14,999 nt of DNA from a virus (taxonomy: Duplodnaviria; Heunggongvirae; Uroviricota; Caudoviricetes): IMG/VR virus record IMGVR_UViG_2563366959_000014. One strand, given 5' to 3'. The notes beneath the pieces were generated by a model that worked only from the letters and a program-made list of their open reading frames with translations, did not search any database and was not told where the DNA came from. The translations under genes were made by a program, and so were the position numbers. This document shows, one piece after another, positions 166 through 14,999 of the stretch (position 1 is its first letter; every line of letters begins with the position of its first letter).

Positions 166-251
166 TTTAATTAAATAATTTACACCACAAAAAGTGCCAA
201 AAATCGCAAAATGACTACACCAGTGACTACACCGTTCGGTGCACTGTATGA

Positions 252-1189: not shown

Positions 1190-2851
1190 TTACACCCCGC
1201 TAAATTCTTCCAGTTTCTGGCGGTGGCTGTCGCTTATATCAAAAGCAAAATCCTCATGCTCTGCCTGGAATGTACCAAACGCCATCAGCGCCGCTACGCT
1301 CGGGTCTATCTTGTTCGGTGATTTTTTCTTGTTCGGCTTGATATTGGCGTTCGCGTCACTCTGCATCACGACGTTACTCATCGACCAGGACAACACCGGA
1401 TCGCCACGATGCACAATCACCCTGCGGTTAACAAAAACTTCGAACGATTTCGCCGCCGGACTGAATCTGAGGTAGGTTTGCGGGAACGGCTCCACCTCAA
1501 AACCAGCCCCCTGTAATTGCGTTCTCAGGTGCGTGGCGTTCCACGTATCAAAGCCCACCAGCCTGATATTAAATTTCTCCGCATCCTGCATGATGTCATC
1601 TCTGATCCGGTCGTAATCAATGCAGTCACCTGGCGTTGTGCGTATCCAGCCCGCTTTAGCCCACTGGCGATAGACAGCGCGGTTTTTATTGGCGGGGTTC
1701 TGTAGCTGGAACTCCGGCAGATAATGACGGGAAATCAGCATAATGGTTTTACCAACCGGAAAGGCATAGCACACGCTGGAAATATCGCTGGTTGATGATA
1801 AGTCCAGCCCCGCGTAACACTCCTGCCCGTGTAAATCTTCCTCCGTGAACGTTCCGGCACACTCAGCCCATGCGCCGTAACCCATCCACGGGGTAGCCCC
1901 CTGGCACCAGATATTAAATCGCTTTGTCATCATCTCCACCCATTGCGACGGAATACCCCGCGCTTTCTGGATGGTTGAGGCCAGTTTTTCACGATCCACG
2001 GAAACATCGATGTTAGGGTTAGCCTTTATCCACATCGCCGGATCATCAACCTCGTTTTCGTCGTCCAGCTCGTAAATCAGCACAAAAATTGAATCGTTGA
2101 CCTCTTCGCCGTCCAGGATCTGGCAGCAATAATCATAGTGCTGTTTACAGGCTGAAACGACGTTACTGCCCGATGTGGTAATGGCAAATAACAGCCCTTC
2201 GGGACGTGCGCCCATCCCCAGCTCAAGCGCGGAATAAACGCCGTTATCGGGGTGTAGGTGGTATTCGTCCACGATGGAAAGGCTTGGGTTTGTGCCCTCG
2301 ATGGTTGCCGCTTTTGCTGCCAGCGGCTTTAACAGGCTGTTGCTTTTCGGGTGCATCACCTTGTGGGCCTGAATATTCACCCGCCTGCGTAACGGTCGGG
2401 ATAAAAGGCACATCTGACGCGCATCATCAAAAACGATCCGCGCCTGGTCACGGCTCACCGCTGCGGTGTAGATATCCTGCTGCCCGTTCTCCATAATCAG
2501 AAACCAGTTAGCCAGAATCGCGGCGGTCGTGGATTTCGCATTTTTGCGCGGCACTTCGATAAAGGCGCTCGTGTATTTGCGCCGTCCGGTGGCCTTAACC
2601 TTAAAGCCGAGGATGCACGCAAAGGCGAACTGCTGCCACGGCTCCAGCTCAATGGGTCTGCCACGCATCGGCCCTTTTACGTGCGGGCACACCCTGGAAA
2701 AGGCAATAAACCGCTCCACGACCTCACGATCGAACGTATAAAGGGGGTTTTTAAGGTCAGAAAAGTACCGTTTAACGGCCTGTTTCAGCCGTTTACAGGC
2801 CGGAATTTTGCCCGTTTTTACGTCTTCTGCGTACTTATTCCAGGCGGTCAA
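1190..2851 (-). CDS. Terminase large subunit (TerL)
   Basis: 553 aa with N-terminal ATPase region and C-terminal nuclease-like region typical of HK97-type large terminases. Starts with TTG (AGAGGA Shine-Dalgarno upstream), overlapping the TerS 3' end by 17 nt. Confidence 0.9.
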   Translation of the reverse strand: MTAWNKYAEDVKTGKIPACKRLKQAVKRYFSDLKNPLYTFDREVVERFIAFSRVCPHVKGPMRGRPIELEPWQQFAFACILGFKVKATGRRKYTSAFIEVPRKNAKSTTAAILANWFLIMENGQQDIYTAAVSRDQARIVFDDARQMCLLSRPLRRRVNIQAHKVMHPKSNSLLKPLAAKAATIEGTNPSLSIVDEYHLHPDNGVYSALELGMGARPEGLLFAITTSGSNVVSACKQHYDYCCQILDGEEVNDSIFVLIYELDDENEVDDPAMWIKANPNIDVSVDREKLASTIQKARGIPSQWVEMMTKRFNIWCQGATPWMGYGAWAECAGTFTEEDLHGQECYAGLDLSSTSDISSVCYAFPVGKTIMLISRHYLPEFQLQNPANKNRAVYRQWAKAGWIRTTPGDCIDYDRIRDDIMQDAEKFNIRLVGFDTWNATHLRTQLQGAGFEVEPFPQTYLRFSPAAKSFEVFVNRRVIVHRGDPVLSWSMSNVVMQSDANANIKPNKKKSPNKIDPSVAALMAFGTFQAEHEDFAFDISDSHRQKLEEFSGV

Positions 2852-3191
2852 GCTCGTCCTCTTCTTCTGTTTCCGGTGGATTTTTACGGCGGCTTATCGG
2901 GTCAAAACCGAGCAAAGAGGCCATTTTTATCATCACTCTTTCCGCGTCGGATTTCGCGCTTAATGCGGGGTTTCTGCTCTCGCCGCCCTGACTGTTAACA
3001 ATGCTGAACCCGCGCGCCGCAAGGTCTGCGACGGCTTTCCGGTATATTGAGTAATTGACGCAATACAGTTCCAGATTACTCCAGTCGGCAGGGGTCAGGT
3101 CTCCCCGTTCCGCAAGCTGCCGCGATTTTTCCCGCCACTGCTTCACGGCGATATCATCCAGGTAGGCGGGGGCTTTCGGTGGTCTTGCCAT
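2835..3191 (-). CDS. Terminase small subunit, P27-family-like (TerS)
   Basis: 118 aa; sequence pattern (PKAPAYLD...LTPADWSNLELYCVNYSIY...ESRNPAL) fits P27-family small terminases; directly upstream of TerL. Confidence 0.85.
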   Translation of the reverse strand: MARPPKAPAYLDDIAVKQWREKSRQLAERGDLTPADWSNLELYCVNYSIYRKAVADLAARGFSIVNSQGGESRNPALSAKSDAERVMIKMASLLGFDPISRRKNPPETEEEDELDRLE

Positions 3192-3240
3192 GCTTATTTT
3201 TTCGCCAGATTATTTTTCAAAAAATTACCGTGCATAAAAA

Positions 3241-3310
3241 TTTGGGGAGGCGGTCGGTTCTGGGCGGGGTCGGGTTCGTCCTGAAAACTCCCCCCACCCC
3301 GTCCGGCTGC
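3241..3310. other. Candidate cos / packaging-recognition region (G-rich block followed by C-rich block)
   Basis: GGGGAGGCGGTCGGTTCTGGGCGGGGTCGGG followed by CCCCCCACCCCGTCCGG, embedded in an AT-rich gap between HNH and TerS, where HNH-dependent cos phages place cos. Positional inference only. Confidence 0.3.
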
Positions 3311-3314
3311 CTCA

Positions 3315-3488
3315 TCAGCGATTGCGGAAACATTCCATAACCTCGCGGTCACGGTCGTTTAATCGCGTCGCTGTGATGCGTTCTGCGCGTCCTGATGCTT
3401 TATCTTTATGCCCTGTTTCCTGTGCCTTCCATGCGTCACGCTGCCTTATAAGTCCACGGATAAGGCGGTTTTGTTCCCGCTCATTCAT
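3315..3488 (-). CDS. Small charged hypothetical protein (57 aa)
   Basis: ATG at 3488 overlaps the HNH stop (3481-3483) in the arrangement ATGAATGA, suggesting translational coupling. No family recognised; could be spurious. Confidence 0.35.
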   Translation of the reverse strand: MNEREQNRLIRGLIRQRDAWKAQETGHKDKASGRAERITATRLNDRDREVMECFRNR

Positions 3489-3921
3489 CAGCGCCATACA
3501 TCCAGTTATTGCGGTTAGCGCCCCGTTCTTCCTCCTCACGGAATCCACCCGCAGCACGCTTGTTTTTTGTGGACGGATCAAGCCATTTCGTTTTCTGGTT
3601 ATGACACGCCTGGCACAATGGCTGATGATTCCACTCAGGCCAGAAGAGAACATCATTACCGCCATCGATTGGGATAATGTGATCCACCACCACGGCGGGC
3701 GTGTATATTCCTTTTTCCAGGCAATGCGCACATAACGGGTTTTTACTCAGATACATGGCGCGGTATTTCTCCCACTGCCTCGTATACCCTCGCTCCCTGC
3801 TGCTGCCTCTCCGGCTGTCCTGCTGCTGGCGTGCGCTGCGTCTGTGCTCCTCACACTTGCCGGACTTCACGCGCCTGTTGCAGCCTGGTTCTGTACATCG
3901 TCTTAATGGTTGCCACGGCAT
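3481..3921 (-). CDS. HNH endonuclease (terminase-associated)
   Basis: 146 aa with cysteine-rich N-terminus and the motif VDHIIPI...N.QPLCQACHNQKT; sits next to TerS/TerL as in cos-packaging HK97-like systems. Confidence 0.9.
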   Translation of the reverse strand: MPWQPLRRCTEPGCNRRVKSGKCEEHRRSARQQQDSRRGSSRERGYTRQWEKYRAMYLSKNPLCAHCLEKGIYTPAVVVDHIIPIDGGNDVLFWPEWNHQPLCQACHNQKTKWLDPSTKNKRAAGGFREEEERGANRNNWMYGADE

Positions 3922-4217
3922 CAGTACACCCCCACATCACGGTAAGCCGTCCAGAGTGCGCCAATCGTCATGGGTACGTGTGTTTTTGCGTTATCCGCGA
4001 CAATCTGGCGATTCTCATACAGGTGAGCGATAAACATCATGCAGCCAATCTTTATGGCTGGCGTGAACTCCAGCCCGTCATCAAAGCGCCTGCCTATGTG
4101 TATCTGGCACGCCTCAAGCGATGCGGCAATGTATCCGCTGATTAACTGGTCTTCCTCGTCGCCATCGATGCGGCAATGGAGTTTCACTTCTTCCAGGGTG
4201 ATAAGTTCTTCTGTCAT
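3921..4217 (-). CDS. gp6-like head-tail connector protein
   Basis: 98 aa; N-terminus LITLEEVKLHCRIDGDEEDQLISGYIAAS matches the gp6-like connector pattern. Start and stop overlap neighbouring genes. Confidence 0.8.
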   Translation of the reverse strand: MTEELITLEEVKLHCRIDGDEEDQLISGYIAASLEACQIHIGRRFDDGLEFTPAIKIGCMMFIAHLYENRQIVADNAKTHVPMTIGALWTAYRDVGVY

Positions 4218-4552
4218 TTTTCCGCGCCCTCACGACAAAGAATTTCAAGGCGTGTCCTGGCGGCATCCGGCAGCGGCTGCCCGATGATATTCAGTACACG
4301 CCCCGCCAGCGGCCCCGTATTGACCTTTATCCGGCTGGTGGCGTTGATGTCCTTCCGGTACCGTATCCAGATCCTTACGGTACCAATCGCCAGCTCTGCA
4401 CCCGATGAAATGGCCTCCTTGCTGCTGACCATGTTCACGCTTGCCCAGAGTGTGTGACCGTCCTCCCACGTTTCGAGTATTTCTCCCGTCATGGCTCTGG
4501 TCTGTTTCAGGGTCTGAATCGTTACCCTGTCACGCAGTCGCCCTATGTTCAT
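4214..4552 (-). CDS. Head closure / head-tail adaptor protein
   Basis: Begins MNIGRLRDRVTIQ, with the IRYR and NIIG motifs typical of head-tail joining proteins; ATG at 4552 overlaps the portal stop (ATGA). An alternative start at 4594 is possible. Confidence 0.8.
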   Translation of the reverse strand: MNIGRLRDRVTIQTLKQTRAMTGEILETWEDGHTLWASVNMVSSKEAISSGAELAIGTVRIWIRYRKDINATSRIKVNTGPLAGRVLNIIGQPLPDAARTRLEILCREGAEK

Positions 4553-5760
4553 TCCGGTTTTTCTCCCTCGCTGATTTTTACTTCCTGTTTCCATGCCTGG
4601 CTGAACTCATCACCACCATCACGCGGAGACAACCCTTCTCGTTCGCGGGCTTCGTTCGGGCACATAACACCGGATTTGATGCCTCGCTCATAGGTGGCAA
4701 AGCGTTCGCCAGGTGTGGCCCGTAACAGGTCCGCGCTGTCAAACTCCACCTGATACCGGATACCAGGTACAGGCGAGACCACCAGCAAAGCGTTTTTTAT
4801 CTGCTGCTCAAAGTTCGCCAGCCACGGGCGCATCGTCATGGTGAGAAATGCGCGGCTTGCCTCGCTGAAATTGCTGTAGGTGCTGTTGCTGTATTCCTGC
4901 AGAAAAATCGGCGAGACGTTGAACATTCGGGCGATGTCTTCAATGGTGAAGCGACGGGAGGCCAGCCATTCGGCGTCCTGGTTACTCATGCCCAGCTGCT
5001 GGTAACTCATGCCCCCTTCAAGGATGGGCGTTTTTCCGGCGTTTTTGGCCCCTTTATAGCGTTCCAGTGCGGCTAATGCCTGTTTGCCTTTCACGCCGTC
5101 CAGCCATTCGCCTGACGTGATAACCCCTGCCGCCATCATGCCATCACGCATCACGCTCGCGCCGTGGCGTTGTTGGGCCAGCCCAAGCCCCAGCGATTCG
5201 CGGCAGATGGTTACGGGTGAGCGCCCCATAAAGCCGTCATCCGTGGAGTAACGAAGGTGAAGTACTTCCCACGGTAAATAGTTGCGGGTGTTTCCGGTGT
5301 AGGCGTCAGTGATGCAATAGCGCCAGTTGTGTTCTCCTGTCTGCTCCACGTTCACCGACTGCGGCGGGTAAGGATGTAAAGCCGCCGGAAAACCATCACG
5401 CCCCCACTGAATCACCGCGTAAGCATTACCGTTTAACAGGCAGTGGCGGATCATCATTCGCTTAAACTGGTAGGGAGTCTGCCACGCGTTCGGGCGCTCG
5501 TTGAGGATGTGATCGACCGGATGAGAATCAAGCCACTCGCGGGCCTCCTTCCCCTTCTCATTGCGTACCAGGTACAGGTAACACGGCATAGTAGCCACCG
5601 CCTCAGAGATGACCGTGACGGCGTTCATGACGGCGGGCAGTGATTCCGCTGTCCCCGATGATACATACTCACCCGCCCCCGTGTTTAATGTACCAGCCAG
5701 CGCCATAAATTCATCAAGCGTCATGCTGCGCTGCTCTTTTTTTCTTCTGAAAGGCCACAT
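4549..5760 (-). CDS. Portal protein, HK97 family
   Basis: 403 aa, portal-like sequence features; ATG at 5760 one nt after the protease stop, GGGGGTG Shine-Dalgarno. Confidence 0.9.
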   Translation of the reverse strand: MWPFRRKKEQRSMTLDEFMALAGTLNTGAGEYVSSGTAESLPAVMNAVTVISEAVATMPCYLYLVRNEKGKEAREWLDSHPVDHILNERPNAWQTPYQFKRMMIRHCLLNGNAYAVIQWGRDGFPAALHPYPPQSVNVEQTGEHNWRYCITDAYTGNTRNYLPWEVLHLRYSTDDGFMGRSPVTICRESLGLGLAQQRHGASVMRDGMMAAGVITSGEWLDGVKGKQALAALERYKGAKNAGKTPILEGGMSYQQLGMSNQDAEWLASRRFTIEDIARMFNVSPIFLQEYSNSTYSNFSEASRAFLTMTMRPWLANFEQQIKNALLVVSPVPGIRYQVEFDSADLLRATPGERFATYERGIKSGVMCPNEAREREGLSPRDGGDEFSQAWKQEVKISEGEKPE

Positions 5761-5761
5761 A

Positions 5762-6319
5762 TCACACCCCCGCTAAATCCACCCACCAGCGGCGATTATC
5801 CGCACGCGGCATTTTTTCGGGGTGCTGCTCATACAGGGAACGGCGGACCAGCTCCACACCGGAATCGGGGTAAGCCGGTACGGATGTGACGGTAATTTCG
5901 TACAGTTCCGCAACCAGCACGGTGCGCACGCATGGATCTGTTGTGGTATCCCATACATCCTTACGGGAACGAAAGCCAAAGCTCATGCCGGATATATCAC
6001 CACGCTTAACCAGTTCGATAACGTCCCGCCCTGTACTGGTATCCGGTGGCGTCAGTTCAAAGCGTAACCCTGTGTCGTCCTCTTCCAGTTTCAGCGAGCC
6101 GGAACGGGTGCGCCCCAGTAACATGCTGTGGTCATGCTCATACAGGCCGCGAACGTCATTACCCGCCGCAAGCCACTCAGTAAACGCCCCCCGCTGAAAT
6201 TTTTCGTAAAACTCACCCCATAGCAGATCAGAAAGGTTATTCCAGCGAACAACGTAACCCGTCAGCGTGTTGCTGGCGCTGGTGGTGATTTCCGATGACC
6301 GGATTTCCATACTCTTCAT
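5762..6319 (-). CDS. Prohead maturation protease, HK97 family
   Basis: Sequence pattern (GYVVRWNNLSD...ISGMSFGF...EITVTSVPAYPDSG) fits HK97-type prohead proteases. Start chosen at the internal ATG at 6319 (MKSMEIR); the longer ORF to 6433 would overlap the capsid gene. Confidence 0.85.
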   Translation of the reverse strand: MKSMEIRSSEITTSASNTLTGYVVRWNNLSDLLWGEFYEKFQRGAFTEWLAAGNDVRGLYEHDHSMLLGRTRSGSLKLEEDDTGLRFELTPPDTSTGRDVIELVKRGDISGMSFGFRSRKDVWDTTTDPCVRTVLVAELYEITVTSVPAYPDSGVELVRRSLYEQHPEKMPRADNRRWWVDLAGV

Positions 6320-6344
6320 AATTTTTTTCACCCATAAAACACTA

Positions 6345-6364
6345 AAGGGGCTTTTTAGCCCCTT
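6345..6364 (-). terminator. Stem-loop between capsid and protease genes (possible partial terminator or attenuator)
   Basis: AAGGGGC / GCCCCTT 7-bp stem with a 6-nt loop, 10 nt after the capsid stop, followed on the minus strand by a moderately U-rich stretch. Confidence 0.35.
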
Positions 6365-6374
6365 CTGTATGCTG

Positions 6375-7532
6375 TTAATCGTCGTCCTGTGGCAGTTCCA
6401 GAATCTTGATCGCGTTCGAATCCACCACGCCACCGCCTAAATATTTCTGCGTGAAAATTTTGATGAATCCTGGTTCTGTCAGGTTGTCCGGTCTGGTGCG
6501 AACACCCGTTTCGTGATCAACAATGTAGTAACCGCGTTTGAAGTCACCCAGGGCAATAACGTTATCCGGCATAAACTCCAGATATTCGACCGGAAGGCCC
6601 AGCAACGTATCAGGATCACCAGCCTGTAAACGGTCGCGCCAGATGTAATCACCGTTCGCGTTCTTCACCTTCTGAAGTTTTGCCGCCGTCGTGGAGTTAA
6701 CCACCCAGACCGCGTTTTTGCGGTATTTTTTACGTAATGCAAATTTCAGGTCGATCAGCGGGTCCGCAGATGTCCACGCAAGAGACTCAGAAGGCTTAAT
6801 TACCTGCAACGTACCAAAATCACGCTCTTTGTCGTTCTTCTCTGCACGGGGTACGGATAAAAAGCCTTTTGCTTTTTTGTCACCGTCGCCCACAACCAGA
6901 TCGCTTTCTTCGATTTCCGTGAAGGTGTCGCCAATCTCGCCCGTCAGCCATGAAAGGATGTCCACATCGGAAAAATCCACGATTTCCTGTGTGGTGCGCG
7001 GGTACGCATAGACCGGATACAGCTTAATGCTCACCTCGTTAATCTGCGGGGTGCTGGTCTGTTCGCGTGACTTACCCTCTTCACCGTGGTTAACGGTCGC
7101 ACCGCCAGCGGAAACAAGCTGCTTAAACTCGTTGCTGCTGATTTTCTTCACGGTACAGATGCGGCGCATGGTGGATTCATCCGCCAGCATTCGCATGATT
7201 TCGGTGTTCAGTTCAGGGATAACGGTATAACCACCATCAGCGGGGACACCTGTACTTAATGCGCGGGTTTCACCTGTCAGGATGTAGTTGCGGAGTTCTG
7301 CCGGGTCAGTGGTCTGGCTGCTTTTACCTGGCTTGCTGCGATCTTCGTCTGCAATGGCTTCAAGGCGGGAAATGTCTTTATCGAGGGATTCAGCTTTAGC
7401 GCGTAATTCGTCAAATTTTGCGCCCTCTGCATCGTTAAGGCTGCGGTTTTCTTTTTCCGCGTTCTCCAGCATGTCGCGCATCTGATTTTTAATGGCGGTT
7501 TTCTGCTGGCGTAATTCGATTATTCTCGGCAT
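6375..7532 (-). CDS. Major capsid protein, HK97 fold
   Basis: 385 aa from the ATG at 7532 (MPRIIELRQQ); N-terminal coiled-coil-like delta-domain region followed by a capsid-like body; directly upstream of protease and portal. Confidence 0.9.
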   Translation of the reverse strand: MPRIIELRQQKTAIKNQMRDMLENAEKENRSLNDAEGAKFDELRAKAESLDKDISRLEAIADEDRSKPGKSSQTTDPAELRNYILTGETRALSTGVPADGGYTVIPELNTEIMRMLADESTMRRICTVKKISSNEFKQLVSAGGATVNHGEEGKSREQTSTPQINEVSIKLYPVYAYPRTTQEIVDFSDVDILSWLTGEIGDTFTEIEESDLVVGDGDKKAKGFLSVPRAEKNDKERDFGTLQVIKPSESLAWTSADPLIDLKFALRKKYRKNAVWVVNSTTAAKLQKVKNANGDYIWRDRLQAGDPDTLLGLPVEYLEFMPDNVIALGDFKRGYYIVDHETGVRTRPDNLTEPGFIKIFTQKYLGGGVVDSNAIKILELPQDDD

Positions 7533-7824: not shown

Positions 7825-8049
7825 TCAGTCCCTGATCCCTTTCAGAAATTCTATCAATGCATCTATCTGTTCAGGATTTACTGCCAGCATTTCACCGGAT
7901 AGAGCACATCTCACAAAACCATGCTGATCCTTTTCAATCAGTGCGCCCGTCTCCAGGAATGCGCGGTAATCATTGATGTTCATCGTCTCCATGTTGTCAG
8001 CATGGTATTTATCACGCTGTTTTAATATCTCATCAAATTTCATCGGCAT
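7825..8049 (-). CDS. Hypothetical protein (74 aa), moron-like cargo
   Basis: ATG at 8049 with AGAGGA Shine-Dalgarno; AT-rich relative to neighbours; bracketed by two near-identical terminator hairpins. No family recognised. Confidence 0.6.
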   Translation of the reverse strand: MPMKFDEILKQRDKYHADNMETMNINDYRAFLETGALIEKDQHGFVRCALSGEMLAVNPEQIDALIEFLKGIRD

Positions 8050-8144
8050 TGTTTTTTCCTCTGTTGTGTCTGTTTGTTTCAGATAGTAACTATGCCGGAC
8101 CGTGACGAAAAGCCGGTAATGCGCCATACCGTTTCAACTGGCGC

Positions 8145-8457: not shown

Positions 8458-8868
8458 TCAGAACGGAATATCATCACCGTAAGGGTCATCGCCTCCCGCT
8501 GGTGGCTGATTACCCTGTGTGCCTGTGGTTTTGCGTCTGCTGCCGCCTGGTCGCACCGTTTTCGCACTGATTACGCTGTCGGCAATGACCTGATAACCCT
8601 GACGCGTCTCCCCGTTCTGTCCGGTCCACTGGCTTACCTGCATCGTGCCGGATACGCTGATTACGTTGCCTTTCTCATGTCCTGCCAGTTGGTCGGCCTG
8701 TTTGCCAAATGCCAGGACCGACAGCCATAACGTAGCCTGCCCGTCCTGCGCCTGACTGCATGGCAACGATACCGCCATACGCGCCAGCGTCATCGGTGTG
8801 CCCTTGCTGGTCTGTTTTACCTGCGGGTCGTCCACCAGCCGCCCGTAAGCTGCAATTTGTGCTGTCAT
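8458..8868 (-). CDS. ssb: Single-stranded DNA-binding protein (SSB)
   Basis: OB-fold-like N-terminal region, a Gly/Gln/Pro-rich linker, and the canonical acidic C-terminal tip ending DDIPF. Confidence 0.85.
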   Translation of the reverse strand: MTAQIAAYGRLVDDPQVKQTSKGTPMTLARMAVSLPCSQAQDGQATLWLSVLAFGKQADQLAGHEKGNVISVSGTMQVSQWTGQNGETRQGYQVIADSVISAKTVRPGGSRRKTTGTQGNQPPAGGDDPYGDDIPF

Positions 8869-9712: not shown

Positions 9713-11530
9713 TTAATTTTTGCTATCGTCATTAGTGACCGATACACATGACGGCATCCAGTCTTCTGATTCCTCCGTCAGTGTCACGTTTGAACGCAAA
9801 CCGTGCTTCGTTTTCCGTTTCATATACTCCCTGCCATATTCCGCCATTGCCCCCGGCATATCTTTACCGAAGCGCGTCAGTGTTACAGGTTTACCAAACC
9901 CATGTGCCTTCATATAAGCCAGATAGGCATGATAGAGATACCTGCGCGGGCTGAATGGCACAATTTCAGCATTACCCACTAACAGGCCATCACACATTAC
10001 CGACGCCATGAGATAGCCGCAGAAGTCCACCAGCGAATCACCTTCACGCTTTATCGCGAGTGCTTCTTCTGATTTCTGCTGCTCATATAAAAGGCGTCTG
10101 GCTTCGTCCTGGTCAGCAAACCGTGTAAGCAGATGACGAATCACTACCGCCAGCTCACCTTCTATTTTTTCCGCCAGCATTGAATCGCGTTCGTTCTCCG
10201 GTACAACTTCCGAAAAATTGAATATCACCCGACGGCGCGAGATCCCCCCGCTGCGGTCACTGAATGACATGGCGTTATTGTTAACCGCCAGCACTACTGC
10301 CGGAATACGCGTTGAGTAGGGGGCTTTGTGTTTCGGGTCAATTGCCACCTTGTCACCGCCTGTAATGGCCTTAATTCCTGCCCCATCACCAGCGTAGCGG
10401 GTCATATCCGGCATGATAATCAGCGAAAAGCCAACCACTAACGCGCGTTCCCTTGCATCTTCCAGCGCCTTCATGCTTGCCGATACTGTGTTGGCCTTAC
10501 CCGCCAGCATGGTGCAAATCTCCGCCATCACGCTTTTACCACTTCCCCCTGGACCTGTTACCTCAATGAATAACTGCCAGTCGTACCGGTTCGCCAGCAC
10601 CATGAATAATGCAGCCAGTACGCGATCCGCCTTGCGGTCATTCTCAGCCACCGAACGGCGTAACCACTTCCAGAAATTCGGCGCATGTGTTGCCAGCGTT
10701 TCTCCCTCTGCTGGTGGGCTGAAAGGTAATTCACTGGCAATTAACAACCAGTCGTTTTTGTTATGCTCCCGAAAATCGCCTGTCCGGGTATCAAAAACAC
10801 CGTTACTGAATCCAATCAGGTTACGGGCTGTATTCCCCATTACAGGCAAACTTAACTTCATGGTATCGACCGCCGATTTAATGGCGTTCTGCGAATAGCT
10901 GATCTCCGCATCAATGAAAATCTGTGCCATAGCTCGCTGTAATTCTTTATCCTGTACTGGCTCCCATACAACGCCGTTGTAATAGTGAACAGTGTCAGAG
11001 TCAGCATGAATCGCCAGTTCACCGCCATAATGTGCCAGGAGAACTTCGCCGCGTTGACTTGCTCCCATCTGGTTAAGCGCCAGTGATGAAGCGTTATCGT
11101 CTTTTACCCGCTCTTTTTTCTTTACAGGCAGTTCAACTACCTTTTTCTTTTCCGCCTGCTCTGCCCGTTCACGTTCCAGATATTCGCGCCAGTTCTCCCG
11201 TTTCTGGCTGTGCATTCCTTCAGGGTAATAATCAGCATCCCTGACACCTGCCGCTGCCAGTTTCTGCCCGATGGTATTAACAAGCCCCGGACGCAATAAC
11301 CCCGCCTGGTAGAGACGCACGCGATAGCGTCCGTCCGGTACGATTTGCAGGTTGTCCAGTTCGGCAAGTTGTTGCTCTCCAAGCCAGACAGGAGGCACGC
11401 TGTCGCCAGCCAGTCGCCCGTCCTGTTCCTGCCACTGCTTCGCATGTGCCCACGCATCACTACCCGCAAAAATGATGACTTCCGTCATTTTGTCACGTGG
11501 CTGGTGTTTTAAATTTGGCGCTTTTTTCAT
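9713..11530 (-). CDS. Replication primase/NTPase, P4-alpha C-terminal-domain family
   Basis: 605 aa from the ATG at 11530 (MKKAPNL), which overlaps the upstream stop (ATGA) and follows a GGAGAG Shine-Dalgarno. Walker A motif GPGGSGKS and a Walker B-like hydrophobic stretch; followed by the iteron origin. Confidence 0.85.
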   Translation of the reverse strand: MKKAPNLKHQPRDKMTEVIIFAGSDAWAHAKQWQEQDGRLAGDSVPPVWLGEQQLAELDNLQIVPDGRYRVRLYQAGLLRPGLVNTIGQKLAAAGVRDADYYPEGMHSQKRENWREYLERERAEQAEKKKVVELPVKKKERVKDDNASSLALNQMGASQRGEVLLAHYGGELAIHADSDTVHYYNGVVWEPVQDKELQRAMAQIFIDAEISYSQNAIKSAVDTMKLSLPVMGNTARNLIGFSNGVFDTRTGDFREHNKNDWLLIASELPFSPPAEGETLATHAPNFWKWLRRSVAENDRKADRVLAALFMVLANRYDWQLFIEVTGPGGSGKSVMAEICTMLAGKANTVSASMKALEDARERALVVGFSLIIMPDMTRYAGDGAGIKAITGGDKVAIDPKHKAPYSTRIPAVVLAVNNNAMSFSDRSGGISRRRVIFNFSEVVPENERDSMLAEKIEGELAVVIRHLLTRFADQDEARRLLYEQQKSEEALAIKREGDSLVDFCGYLMASVMCDGLLVGNAEIVPFSPRRYLYHAYLAYMKAHGFGKPVTLTRFGKDMPGAMAEYGREYMKRKTKHGLRSNVTLTEESEDWMPSCVSVTNDDSKN

Positions 11531-11826
11531 TTCTGCTCTCTCCACGCGGCAATCATGTTTTTTAGTTCCTGTAGTTTTTTATCAACATCCATACATGACA
11601 CATGGTTATTTCTGGAAAGCGGGATTTCCCGCCTGAATCTGCTAATAAAGATCTCCACGTTCAGCGAACTAAGAAATGAATAGCCATCACGGATAAAATA
11701 CACTCGGTCAAACATCAGTTCTTTTACCGTTACTCTGTTACCGTTCTTATCCAGATAAATAGCGCCGGGGATAATTTGGGGGTGTGCATAACCGCTGGCA
11801 GTCAAGCCAGATAAATATGTTCTCAT
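11527..11826 (-). CDS. Hypothetical protein (99 aa), AT-rich
   Basis: ATG at 11826 with GGGGA Shine-Dalgarno; stop overlaps the primase start. No family recognised. Confidence 0.55.
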   Translation of the reverse strand: MRTYLSGLTASGYAHPQIIPGAIYLDKNGNRVTVKELMFDRVYFIRDGYSFLSSLNVEIFISRFRREIPLSRNNHVSCMDVDKKLQELKNMIAAWREQK

Positions 11827-11832
11827 GATTAT

Positions 11833-12153
11833 TTATCCCCGATTTAAATCAGTATTCGCTTTCTTTATAGCATTTAATGCATCTTTGGCATTTTCAATGG
11901 TGCACCGTAACGAAATATCAAACTGTCCAAGCATTGCCAGTAACAAACCGATATTACCCATATCAATGCGCATGGCCTTTTCGTCATATTCCTTATTTTC
12001 TGACGCATACCACATCAGGCTACCAATTGACGAAACAGCCATTGATATATTGTCAGTAGCCCCATCCGCAGCGGAATAAACCTTTTTAGCAATATCATGC
12101 TCACAGTTAAAATGCGGATTAATCAGGTACTGGTAATTGGTCATGTCAGTCAT
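11833..12153 (-). CDS. Hypothetical protein (106 aa), AT-rich
   Basis: ATG at 12153 (alternative at 12144), overlapping the 3' end of the upstream small gene. No family recognised. Confidence 0.55.
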   Translation of the reverse strand: MTDMTNYQYLINPHFNCEHDIAKKVYSAADGATDNISMAVSSIGSLMWYASENKEYDEKAMRIDMGNIGLLLAMLGQFDISLRCTIENAKDALNAIKKANTDLNRG

Positions 12154-12349
12154 GGCACACCCCCTGACGAATACGGGCGGCGAATACCATCACGCAGCCA
12201 GCCGGGGATTGCTGGCGTGCTTCCTGTTCGCTGCTGGCCTCAATGGTAATCACGCGCGGTTGTGCCGTGCTCAGGGCGATAAAACGCCAGATGTATTTAT
12301 TCAGGTTGTGCGAGTCCCGCCCTTGCGGGTGTGTGGTATGATTTCTCAT
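12146..12349 (-). CDS. Hypothetical protein (67 aa), first gene of the minus-strand replication operon
   Basis: ATG at 12349 with GAGGT Shine-Dalgarno at 4-nt spacing; this is the C-terminal 67 codons of a longer spurious ORF. Weak support. Confidence 0.4.
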   Translation of the reverse strand: MRNHTTHPQGRDSHNLNKYIWRFIALSTAQPRVITIEASSEQEARQQSPAGCVMVFAARIRQGVCHD

Positions 12350-12445
12350 AGCTACCTCGATACTTTCGCTATCGTTGGTGGTTAGAAGCCCGGTTAGTGT
12401 TAGCGCACTGCCGGGTTTCGTCGTTTCTGCACCTTGCGCCAACAA

Positions 12446-12499
12446 GGTGTTGAACACCAATTTAAACCCAGGTGTTAAACACGTCAAGTGTTGAACACT
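12446..12499. promoter_or_regulatory. Three palindromic operators (GTGTT-N-AACAC) in a divergent promoter region
   Basis: GGTGTTGAACACC at 12446-12458, GGTGTTAAACACG at 12471-12483, AGTGTTGAACACT at 12487-12499. The third overlaps a plus-strand -35-like TTGAAC (12491-12496), with a 17-bp spacer to a -10-like CATACT (12514-12519). Confidence 0.6.
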
Positions 12500-12548
12500 T
12501 ATTTTTTTTCCTGCATACTGCATTTGTTTTTTATGAGGGGTACACCAC

Positions 12549-12728
12549 ATGGCGACAAAAGCAGTAAACGCAAAATCACAAACCGTTGCGGCAAGGGTTC
12601 CGCATGAAGTTATGAACAATGTTGAGGCGGTAAAAATGCCTGGCGAAAGTACGGGGCAATTTGTTACTGCAGCATTAAAACGAGAAGTTGAATATCGCCA
12701 GCGGCGCAAGGCCAAAGAACCAGAGTAA
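12549..12728 (+). CDS. Ribbon-helix-helix (Arc/CopG-like) DNA-binding protein, 59 aa
   Basis: Not in the supplied ORF track (under 60 aa). ATG at 12549 with GAGGGG Shine-Dalgarno. TVAARVP (beta strand), HEVMNNVEAV (helix), GESTGQ (turn), FVTAALKREV (helix) fits the RHH pattern. Divergent from the replication operon. Confidence 0.55.
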   Translation: MATKAVNAKSQTVAARVPHEVMNNVEAVKMPGESTGQFVTAALKREVEYRQRRKAKEPE

Positions 12729-12785
12729 TCACCATCAGCGCCGTGGTGTAAGGTATTACGGCGCATTGCTATGCAGGACAACACA

Positions 12786-12959
12786 ATGACCGATAAAGAA
12801 TTGACCAAAACATTATCACCGGCACGGAAAAGACGGCGCAGAAAGATAGAGCATGAATCAGAAAGATTCGCGCCATGTGCTTTTGCCCTTGAGCAATTCC
12901 TTAAAGAGTACAGGGAAAAGCGCTCATTGCAGGTATGGCAACGAACTGAACCAGACTGA
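12786..12959 (+). CDS. Small basic hypothetical protein (57 aa)
   Basis: ATG at 12786 with AGGA upstream (alternative start at 12771); contains an RKRRRRK basic tract; followed by a terminator. Confidence 0.4.
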   Translation: MTDKELTKTLSPARKRRRRKIEHESERFAPCAFALEQFLKEYREKRSLQVWQRTEPD

Positions 12960-13054
12960 TAGCATTGCCCACCAGCCTGATAGCGACTATCATTGCCGTT
13001 CTTATGTTTGGGATCACACACACAAACGGCGCAGCGGGTTATCTGTTCAGAAAG

Positions 13055-13082
13055 GCGGCTCCATTTCGGGGCCGCTTTTTTT
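13055..13082 (+). terminator. Rho-independent terminator (plus strand)
   Basis: GCGGC / GCCGC stem followed by seven T, about 95 nt after the stop of the second plus-strand small gene. Confidence 0.6.
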
Positions 13083-13228
13083 ATGTCTGAAAAACCCCAA
13101 TTTTGTTGTTTTTCAGTTTCACCAGGGCGAACGAATCCCCGCCCACGTTCGGGCGCATATTCAATCTTCATGGTTATAGCTCTGTGTTCAGATGATTGAT
13201 GTGTGGCGGCTGCGTGCCGCCAGCGTGA

Positions 13229-13417
13229 TTAATGAACTGCCTTGCAGCTATCCTTCCAGGCCAGAACCTCGGATAAAGACCAGCCAACGGAACGACCGCC
13301 AAGTTTACGACGTGATGGGAATTGTCCGGCCTTTTCCATGCGGTAGCGACACGTACGGCTAAGGCCGGTTAGTTTTTCGCATTCTTTTTCACGTATAAAC
13401 CGATCAGTGCTTAACAC
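13229..13417 (-). CDS. alpA: AlpA-family regulator / excisionase-like HTH protein
   Basis: 62 aa; KLTGLSRTCRYRMEKAGQFPSRRKLGGRSVGWSLSEVLAWK fits the AlpA/Vis winged-helix pattern. GTG start at 13417 with AGGGGG Shine-Dalgarno at 5-nt spacing; lies downstream of the integrase. Confidence 0.8.
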   Translation of the reverse strand: MLSTDRFIREKECEKLTGLSRTCRYRMEKAGQFPSRRKLGGRSVGWSLSEVLAWKDSCKAVH

Positions 13418-13781: not shown

Positions 13782-14999
13782 TTATTTTCTTCTGGCTACG
13801 GGTAGCGTGGTTACGTTTTCATGTGCTCCCGCCAGTATCCCTAACCGCTCCGTCCACATATCCAGCGCATCACGTTTCGCATCCAGATAACGGGAATGGT
13901 TATAGACTCGTTGCATCCCTGGCATCTGATGACCTGTAAGCTGCTCCACGACGTGAGGATCCGCGCCTAAATCGTTCAGCATCGTTGTAAAGGTGCGCCG
14001 GATGTCATGCAGTGACCATTGAGGGTGTTTTAGCCTCCTGTGCGCTAATCTGCCGTACTGCGATACGCTGGCCTCCTGTTTCACTTCCCCCAGCAATAAG
14101 CCCGTGTGCCTGTTCTGCTCCACCAGCTTCATGACAAACGGCAGGATCGCTTCCGGTATGGGCCGGAATATTGCGACCTTCGTTTTGCTGTGCTCCTTCG
14201 GAACGGTCCATAGCATTTCCGTAAAATCCCACTCCCCGATCTCCGATAACCTCAGTTCTACCGTTCTGGCACCGAAGACAATCAGGAGGCGGATTAACGC
14301 GACGTAGTAAGGGGAAAATATTTTTTTATCCAGTGCCTGCAATAACTCGCCAAGTTCTTTGGTGCTTAAGACACGCTCGCTTATATCCGGTTTTTTCCCA
14401 ACGTCCGCAACGTTCAGATCGTCCAGAACGTTGCTGATTGCATAGCGCCGCCTACGGCAGAACTTAAGCGCCTGTTTGCACGCCTGTAGCACGAATCCGG
14501 CAGTAACAGGCGTTCGCTTTGCCACCTGGTCAAAACAAGCCAGCCAGTGCCGTAGCTCGCATTTATCCAGCGGCATAGCACCAATGTGCTGTATTACGTG
14601 ATTATTAAGTCGCCTTTTCAGGGCGATATAATCCACGCGGTTTTCCTTTACGTAAGACTCAAGCCAGTAGGTAAGCGCATCGCCAACCGTTACGGGCTTT
14701 AACGCTTCCTGTACGGTGTAATTCATCTCATGACGTGGATTTTTCCCCTCAGCCAGCCATGCGCGACACTGTGCGGCTTTTTCCCTGGCTGCTTTCAGGC
14801 TCAGATCAGGATAACTTCCCAGCTTAATGCGTTCGGGTCGTGTCTCCCTTCCCGTTCCGGCCCTGTATGTGAAATACCATGTCAATTTCCCTGATGTTAA
14901 ATATTTCACGCTCAGGTTTCCGCCATCACTATAAAACGTGTTTTTCTCAGCTGGCTTACCATGAAGTTTCCTTAGCAATGTATCGCTCAGTTTGTTCAT
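13782..14999 (-). CDS. int: Tyrosine integrase, P4-type
   Basis: 405 aa; N-terminal arm-binding-like region (YSDGGNLSVKY...WYFTYR) and a C-terminal catalytic region with the conserved HDIRRT and a tyrosine near the C-terminus. ATG is the last three bases of the window. Confidence 0.9.
   Translation of the reverse strand: MNKLSDTLLRKLHGKPAEKNTFYSDGGNLSVKYLTSGKLTWYFTYRAGTGRETRPERIKLGSYPDLSLKAAREKAAQCRAWLAEGKNPRHEMNYTVQEALKPVTVGDALTYWLESYVKENRVDYIALKRRLNNHVIQHIGAMPLDKCELRHWLACFDQVAKRTPVTAGFVLQACKQALKFCRRRRYAISNVLDDLNVADVGKKPDISERVLSTKELGELLQALDKKIFSPYYVALIRLLIVFGARTVELRLSEIGEWDFTEMLWTVPKEHSKTKVAIFRPIPEAILPFVMKLVEQNRHTGLLLGEVKQEASVSQYGRLAHRRLKHPQWSLHDIRRTFTTMLNDLGADPHVVEQLTGHQMPGMQRVYNHSRYLDAKRDALDMWTERLGILAGAHENVTTLPVARRK

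Follow-up and report, generated by a model that had tools for sequence, protein, structure and literature searches.

Why should a head module built from HK97-like proteins begin with its capsid gene, in an order that runs against that of tailed phages, while every gene stays on one strand? The question is raised by positions 3481-7532 of a 14,999-nt stretch of viral DNA (IMG/VR record IMGVR_UViG_2563366959_000014), which we refer to as the window and to which all coordinates apply unless another sequence is named. Our results indicated that the region is almost certainly the capsid-assembly and DNA-packaging operon of a capsid-forming phage-inducible chromosomal island (cf-PICI) of the EcCIEDL933 type, with the gene order that is standard for this family. 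The best overall explanation, to which we assign a probability of roughly 0.9, combines this operon and its family-wide order with a putative attenuation of downstream expression by a hairpin behind the capsid gene.

The long open reading frames (ORFs) of the window all lie on the minus strand according to the ORF list, and Pfam and PHROGs profile searches of these ORFs upheld the gene labels and coordinates that an initial annotation had given for 3481-7532. The operon opens with the major capsid protein of HK97 fold (7532..6375; PF05065, 5.5e-61; phrog_10, 3.6e-87). Across a 55-nt spacer, which holds a GC-rich hairpin, follow the prohead serine protease of the HK97 family (6319..5762; PF04586 Peptidase_S78, 2.8e-47) and the portal protein (5760..4549; PF04860, 3e-90; phrog_12, 9e-116). 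Next come the head-closure protein or 'head-tail adaptor' Hc1 of the SPP1 gp16/HK97 gp7 type (4552..4214; PF05521 Phage_HCP, 1e-22; phrog_25), the gp6-like head-tail connector Ad1 (4217..3921; PF05135, 3.2e-12; phrog_40, 2.8e-35), and an HNH endonuclease that serves as a packaging accessory (3921..3481; PF01844, 9.4e-08; phrog_144, 7.6e-43). The chain continues with a conserved 60-aa ORF of unassigned function, which is annotated by PGAP and present in many relatives (3497..3315; phrog_3173, 9.6e-35). After a 123-nt non-coding gap it ends with the small terminase TerS of the P27 family (3191..2835; PF05119, 1.3e-23) and the large terminase TerL, with its ATPase and nuclease (2851..1190; PF03354 and PF20441; phrog_9, 1.8e-179). 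All eight head-packaging ORFs are intact, and their Pfam and PHROGs domain matches run over the full length.

The capsid protein is near-identical to PDB 9GYI (E = 1.8e-254), a structure cited in the 2025 cf-PICI paper (10.1101/2025.02.11.637232), and Hc1 is near-identical to PDB 2KZ4. After 9GYI, the best matches among solved capsids come from the gene transfer agent of Rhodobacter capsulatus (6TB9/6TBA, E ~4e-46) and not from HK97 itself. We also considered that the portal and capsid labels might have been exchanged, given that both proteins are ~400 aa long and that a swap would restore the canonical order. This was rejected, as Pfam and PHROGs assign both genes unambiguously.

The DNA around the head module points to the same element. 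The window is 99.9% identical over its whole length to a complete E. coli chromosome (NZ_CP144930, our locus L001), in which an island of ~15.0 kb lies between two fragments of tqsA (L001 3145-18187); the window spans nearly all of it. This size falls within the ~10-18 kb by which cf-PICIs are recognized, and further features used for their recognition were found as well. An integrase (Arm-DNA-bind_3 and Phage_integrase) occupies one island end (14999..13782), and an AlpA regulator adjoins the integrase side (13417..13229; PF05930, 1.2e-16). The island carries its own replication module, consisting of a D5_N/Pox_D5/DUF5906 primase-helicase (11545..9713) and a single-stranded DNA-binding protein (SSB; 8868..8458), and its head-packaging genes stand in the published cf-PICI order. 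A PerC-family activator was also detected by Pfam upstream of the head module. Neither tail nor lysis families were found among the remaining window ORFs by the Pfam and PHROG scans, and the PGAP annotation agrees. The head module of an HK97-like tailed prophage is therefore a poor description of the region, whose order differs and in which tail genes were not found.

Specifically, the 4,052 nt from capsid to HNH (3481-7532) are 96.3% identical over 100% of their length to EDL933 1688124-1692174, where the same gene chain is annotated. The cf-PICI lead in the initial annotation was correct. The EDL933 element is known as CP-933C, O-island 51 (OI-51) or Sp7 (PMC3378721), and CP-933C has been renamed EcCIEDL933, the prototype of the capsid-forming PICIs (10.1101/2022.09.08.507074). 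This prototype is induced by a helper phage in an AlpA-dependent manner, builds small capsids from island proteins (capsid, protease and portal), packages island DNA exclusively and receives its tails from the helper (10.1101/2022.09.08.507074). Its own Hc1 and Ad1 close these capsids, and HNH, TerS and TerL carry out the packaging from a cos site of the island. Its shell has T=4 symmetry with 240 major capsid protein positions, the portal replacing one penton, and tail specificity, i.e., which helper tail docks, is fixed by the adaptor/connector proteins (10.1101/2025.02.11.637232). By analogy with so close a prototype, helper induction, small capsids of its own and self-only packaging may be expected of the copy studied here.

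Could the arrangement nonetheless be spurious or dead? That it arose as an assembly or inversion artefact has practically no probability, and the initial annotation was right to argue against it. The near-identical copy lies in a complete chromosome, the module was matched in 534 of 5,426 complete E. coli genomes (~10%) with at least 80% of it present in 402, and the same arrangement recurs in 80 other species. A strand inversion would, moreover, flip gene strands, and none is flipped. A second possibility is that the region is the remnant of a degraded cryptic prophage, with a scrambled and non-functional head module. Older literature does describe OI-51 as a 'highly degraded prophage' (PMC3378721), and the packaging genes stay silent without induction. 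However, the intact ORFs with their full-length domain matches and the conservation of the arrangement in 80 species speak against decay, and the prototype forms capsids and, given a helper, is transferred at high frequency. This refutes the remnant explanation for the prototype and leaves it very improbable here.

Having identified the operon as that of a cf-PICI, we compared its order with the canonical circular order of portal-protease-capsid-Ad1-Hc1-...-HNH-TerS-TerL. The minus strand of the window reads capsid, protease, portal, Hc1, Ad1, HNH, 60-aa ORF, cos, TerS and TerL. The portal-protease-capsid and Ad1-Hc1 blocks are thus each reversed internally, as the initial annotation had stated for every block. 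Its statement does not extend further, since the two blocks keep their relative order, no strand is flipped, and the stretch HNH-cos-TerS-TerL is canonical and unchanged at this locus.

This order is not a local rearrangement. A scan of one genome per species yielded 80 loci, which belong to Enterobacterales, Orbales and Pasteurellales and have capsid identities of 55-98%. In tblastn comparisons with the window proteins as queries, no locus violated the order or the strand (0/80); 74 of the 80 showed capsid-protease-portal, and in 70 the chain was complete as far as TerL. The incomplete chains end at contig ends, except at locus L048 (Rodentibacter genomosp. 2), where nothing past the portal was detected on a full-length contig and an integrase-like match follows on the opposite strand; L048 may be a truncated island. 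Among loci where Hc1 was undetected, a gap between portal and Ad1 remains (median 369 nt), which fits the reported fast divergence of Hc1 (10.1101/2025.02.11.637232). The capsid-first order has been published as the conserved layout of proteobacterial cf-PICIs (10.1101/2022.09.08.507074), and the same order serves as a search criterion for them (10.1101/2025.02.11.637232). It is therefore real but already published as the family standard, and can no longer be treated as an oddity of this locus, as it had been initially.

In the phage collection, only four records had capsids of at least 57% identity, and all four showed the reversed order. Three of them are 3.8-16.5 kb long and the fourth is the 106.5 kb record of Klebsiella phage P12620-1 (PQ569648.1, locus L089). 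There the cf-PICI capsid-protease-portal genes (64% capsid identity) stand at 12001-15022, at the right end, amid unannotated hypothetical genes, and the record probably reflects a chimeric assembly or DNA of the host. The reversed order was found in vB_KppS-Ant and Pasteurella Pmp8, which, together with Salmonella S.Kent 1-2-1, are cf-PICIs deposited as 'phages'. The tailed phages in which both genes could be placed were all canonical (VW-6S, YeP1-3, ST64B, SfI, As1, S.Typ Adana, 606R7, NatCom_26447, HK97), and capsid identity to any of them was at most 40%. This bears out the initial claim of a one-strand order reversed relative to HK97-like phages. Whether the same order is standard in close relatives, the check proposed by the initial annotation, thus has a divided answer: it is standard in the satellites and is not found in helper-type phages, which are canonical. 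No phage of intermediate order was found in the phage collection (no whole-database protein search aimed at metagenomes was made), and no capsid in the collection had an identity between 57% and 40%. We conclude that the reversed order is probably a clade character of proteobacterial cf-PICIs that was fixed once.

The genes of the operon are tightly joined. Read from the sequence, the portal/Hc1 and Hc1/Ad1 junctions are both ATGA with overlaps of 4 nt, the Ad1/HNH junction is TGATG with an overlap of 1 nt, and the HNH/60-aa ORF and TerS/TerL pairs each overlap by 17 nt. The stop/start overlaps that the initial annotation had reported are present at the portal/Hc1, Hc1/Ad1 and Ad1/HNH junctions. 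Its account needs correction for protease and portal, which do not overlap, their junction (TGA-T-ATG) having a spacer of 1 nt.

What lies behind the capsid gene bears on how such an operon might be expressed. The hairpin that had been noted right after this gene is real: the terminator-site scan and folding placed a GC-rich stem-loop, GAAGGGGCU-AAAA-AGCCCCUUU, at 6365..6344 on the minus strand, beginning 10 nt past the capsid stop and ending 25 nt ahead of the protease ATG. It is the top-ranked terminator-like site of the window. A 58-nt intergenic stretch containing it folds at -17.6 kcal/mol (z = -3.4), which was matched by 1 of 200 shuffles. With a 9-bp stem, 5 G-C pairs and a 4-nt loop, it has the GC-rich stem and short loop of an intrinsic terminator; the stem is followed by UUU, able to pair with the 5' GAA, and then by AGUGUUUUAU. 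At gathering thresholds, no Rfam family matched anywhere in the window.

The hairpin is widely kept among relatives. Its conservation was measured by position against shuffles, using 59 distinct sequences 3' of the capsid stop: a hairpin of -8 kcal/mol or below within 60 nt of the stop was present in 57 of these 59 relatives vs. 3.8% of shuffles. The two relatives that lack it are short contigs of insect symbionts in which the spacer is almost nil. The GGGGC...GCCCC core and the T-run are nearly invariant, and loop sequence, loop length and flanks vary; the EDL933 hairpin is near-identical to that of the window, differing by one loop base. At one Haemophilus locus (L071), an unrelated 16-bp stem with a T-run stands at the same position. 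The tails comprise 5-8 U in relatives from Pasteurellaceae and 3-5 U in those from Enterobacterales, and the T5-T8 tails of the Pasteurellaceae copies are typical of strong intrinsic terminators. A GC-rich hairpin directly 3' of the capsid gene also occurs in phages of canonical order (HK97, VW-6S, YeP1, ST64B, SfI), and the HK97 record annotates its own as a 'putative terminator' (5192-5213). The consequence of the hairpin would differ between the two arrangements, as the canonical operon has only connector and tail genes behind it and the operon here has protease, portal, connectors and terminase.

These data allow an account in which neither order nor hairpin serves stoichiometry. The order would then be an accident of history that became set a single time, when the proteobacterial cf-PICI clade arose, and the hairpin merely an inherited element for mRNA ends or stability. 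A single origin is in keeping with the break in capsid identity (at least 55% within the clade vs. no more than 40% for tailed phages), phages have the hairpin as well, and the junction overlaps would make later reshuffling costly. Selection on the element is suggested, however, by its retention across Enterobacterales, Orbales and Pasteurellales despite divergence of loop and flanks, and by its replacement at L071 with an unrelated stem and T-run. We regard an accident of this kind as possible without favoring it.

In the mechanism that we propose instead for the cf-PICI operon, a single transcription unit would be entered upstream of the capsid gene, and the downstream genes would be translationally coupled through their overlaps. 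The hairpin would, in line with the attenuation suggested by the initial annotation, lower the amount of transcript that reaches protease, portal, connectors and terminase, either by partial termination or as a 3' stabilizer of a capsid-only RNA. Expression would in this way fall in the order of copy number per particle, from ~235 capsid subunits to 12 portal subunits and a terminase that acts only catalytically. It is plausible, at odds somewhat short of even, that the hairpin sets the ratio of capsid to downstream expression. More tentatively, the hairpin and the promoter-proximal capsid gene could together form a built-in stoichiometry device with a step of ~20:1, in which a stem-loop in the leader (7570-7533) would act as an on/off gate; such a device would compensate for the helper late antitermination that the satellite is missing.

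The leader stem-loop, seen from sequence and folding, consists of GUCCUGG-(16 nt)-CCAGGAC (stem 7570-7541, minus strand) followed by U8 (7540-7533), and directly abuts the capsid AUG. The only Shine-Dalgarno-like motif, AGGA, lies in its 3' arm, and 77 nt of the leader fold at -19.7 kcal/mol (z = -2.6). The structure looks like a leader terminator or one that occludes the ribosome-binding site. In relatives of the KpCIDSM30104 type, another hairpin, itself highly conserved (GGUUUC...GAAACC), precedes the capsid AUG by 5 nt.

Nonetheless, our proposal needs to be interpreted with caution, as several observations weigh against it. The U-tract of the window hairpin is interrupted (UUUAGUGUUUUAU), so its termination efficiency is unpredictable. 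The near-invariance of the stem core leaves little true covariation, and the conservation could mark a sequence-specific site rather than a structure. Since the hairpin is also found in phages of canonical order, it is an ancestral element that accompanies the capsid gene and did not arise for the reversed order. The retention of portal-protease-capsid by the cf-PICIs of Firmicutes, for which an independent origin has been inferred (10.1101/2022.09.08.507074), means that the lifestyle does not depend on the reversed order. For transcription of the operon as a unit, the terminator-like leader hairpin at the capsid AUG is a difficulty, and no sigma-70-like promoter was found on the minus strand between 7533 and 7824. 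Finally, the sole public expression table that we found covers uninduced cultures only: in strand-specific RNA-seq of EDL933 (PMC4048457), the packaging genes Z1847-Z1854, among them capsid, protease, portal and terminase, reached 0-4 reads per kilobase per million mapped reads (RPKM) in all 11 uninduced conditions, too low to compare the two sides of the hairpin. Per-gene data for the island were found neither in the text of a ciprofloxacin study (PMC11125564) nor in that of a proteomics study (PMC5120812). Our literature search returned no relevant combination of cf-PICI and terminator, and no transcriptome of the induced EcCIEDL933 island.

The same evidence bears on a stronger claim, namely that the reversed order is itself an adaptive design and exists because a capsid-first operon with an attenuator sets a high capsid-to-portal ratio. 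Such a design would agree with an order that descends from the highest to the lowest copy number per particle and is invariant in the 80 species loci, and with the near-universal retention of the hairpin in the relatives. We nevertheless consider it unlikely. Phages of canonical order have the hairpin behind their capsid gene as well, the Firmicute cf-PICIs do without the reversal, and the RPKM values above do not help it. Furthermore, a single founding rearrangement, frozen by overlapping and translationally coupled genes, explains the invariance equally well.

The packaging site of the island can be placed with the help of a relative. When the termini of vB_KppS-Ant were compared with window 3320..3185, the right end of its packaged linear genome aligned with GGGGTGGGGGGAGTTTTCAGGAC at 3300..3278 on the minus strand, and the vB_KppS-Ant record begins 22 nt before TerS. 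The cos region is thus probably located between the 60-aa ORF and TerS, which corresponds to HK97-type phages, whose cos has HNH on one side and TerS on the other. Cleavage would occur in the region of 3300..3278.

Some further features of the island were noted. The protease start ATG at 6319 is common to the window and EDL933, and the A7 run found here just ahead of it (6320-6332, minus strand) is A6 in EDL933 and Shigella. This difference puts an upstream ATG-GGU-GAA out of frame in the window and explains why islands that are otherwise near-identical have been annotated with protease genes of unequal start (558 nt in the window vs. 573 nt in EDL933). Two near-identical terminator hairpins (AGCCGGAG(A/C)AAUCCGGCU with a U-run) stand at 8168-8151 and 7814-7797 on the minus strand, one on either side of a 100-aa ORF (8127..7825; phrog_1957, function unassigned) that lies between the genes for PerC and capsid. 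The ORF and its flanking terminators look like a self-contained inserted cassette. In EDL933, Z1846, which is located between SSB and capsid and may be the counterpart of the 100-aa ORF, reached 8-154 RPKM in cultures whose packaging genes were silent.

Beside AlpA, a minus-strand ORF of 341 aa (12146-13171) matches a family only in its last ~90 residues (transcriptional repressor, phrog_6196). PGAP treats the equivalent ORF as a pseudogene (incomplete), and on the plus strand the 341-aa ORF encloses a small divergent gene of the YlcI/YnfO family (12549-12728); the regulatory region here seems rearranged relative to EDL933. At the island ends, a 23-bp direct repeat (TGACTACACCAGTGACTACACCG, with a tandem AGTGACTACACC 12-mer) occurs at window 212-234 and at L001 18037-18059, inside the tqsA fragments, the second copy 38 nt past the window end. 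The repeats could serve as attachment (att) sites or as arm sites of the integrase.

Publications already cover the element, its gene order, the structure of its capsid and its biology, and the copy described here departs little from the prototype. In annotations, 'cf-PICI' is the appropriate label for the locus, and 'scrambled prophage' is not. The conserved post-capsid hairpin and the leader stem-loop, by contrast, appear to be undescribed, as no mention of either was found in the searchable cf-PICI papers. Should both govern expression, they would account for the way in which a satellite lacking a late-gene antiterminator adjusts capsid levels relative to portal and terminase, and they would be simple handles in the engineering of DNA delivery particles based on cf-PICIs.

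Comparison with known systems places the island closest to EcCIEDL933, with which the module shares not only its nucleotide sequence but also the order, the junctions and the hairpin, along with an int-AlpA-PerC-SSB backbone of the same type. The prototype differs in being inserted between phoQ and roxA, whereas the window island sits in tqsA; it also carries a DUF927 replication protein in place of the D5-type primase, and some accessory genes differ. Islands of the KpCIDSM30104/vB_KppS-Ant type (Klebsiella, Enterobacter and others) likewise have an identical order, a post-capsid hairpin and cos between the small ORF and TerS. Their capsid and portal are ~65% and ~81% identical to those of the window, their Hc1, which is tied to tail specificity, has strongly diverged, their leader hairpin is another one, and the T-tract behind their post-capsid hairpin is shorter. 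The cf-PICIs of Firmicutes (Bacillus/Clostridium/Staphylococcus and Lactococcus/Enterococcus), compared here by their published description, resemble the island in lifestyle and gene content but differ in the order of portal, protease and capsid and in their inferred independent origin (10.1101/2022.09.08.507074).

HK97, ST64B, SfI, YeP1 and VW-6S use the same protein families, have HNH and TerS flanking cos, and place a GC-rich hairpin behind the capsid gene. They depart from the island in their capsids, as distant as those of the other tailed phages, and in their order, which runs TerS-TerL-portal-protease-capsid-Ad1-Hc1 and then into tail genes. In phage T7, the terminator T-phi follows gene 10, which encodes the major capsid protein, and capsid mRNA exceeds downstream mRNA as a result. 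T7 has its own RNA polymerase and another gene order, and the likeness to the island is functional only: in both, a terminator-like hairpin stands just after the most abundant structural gene.

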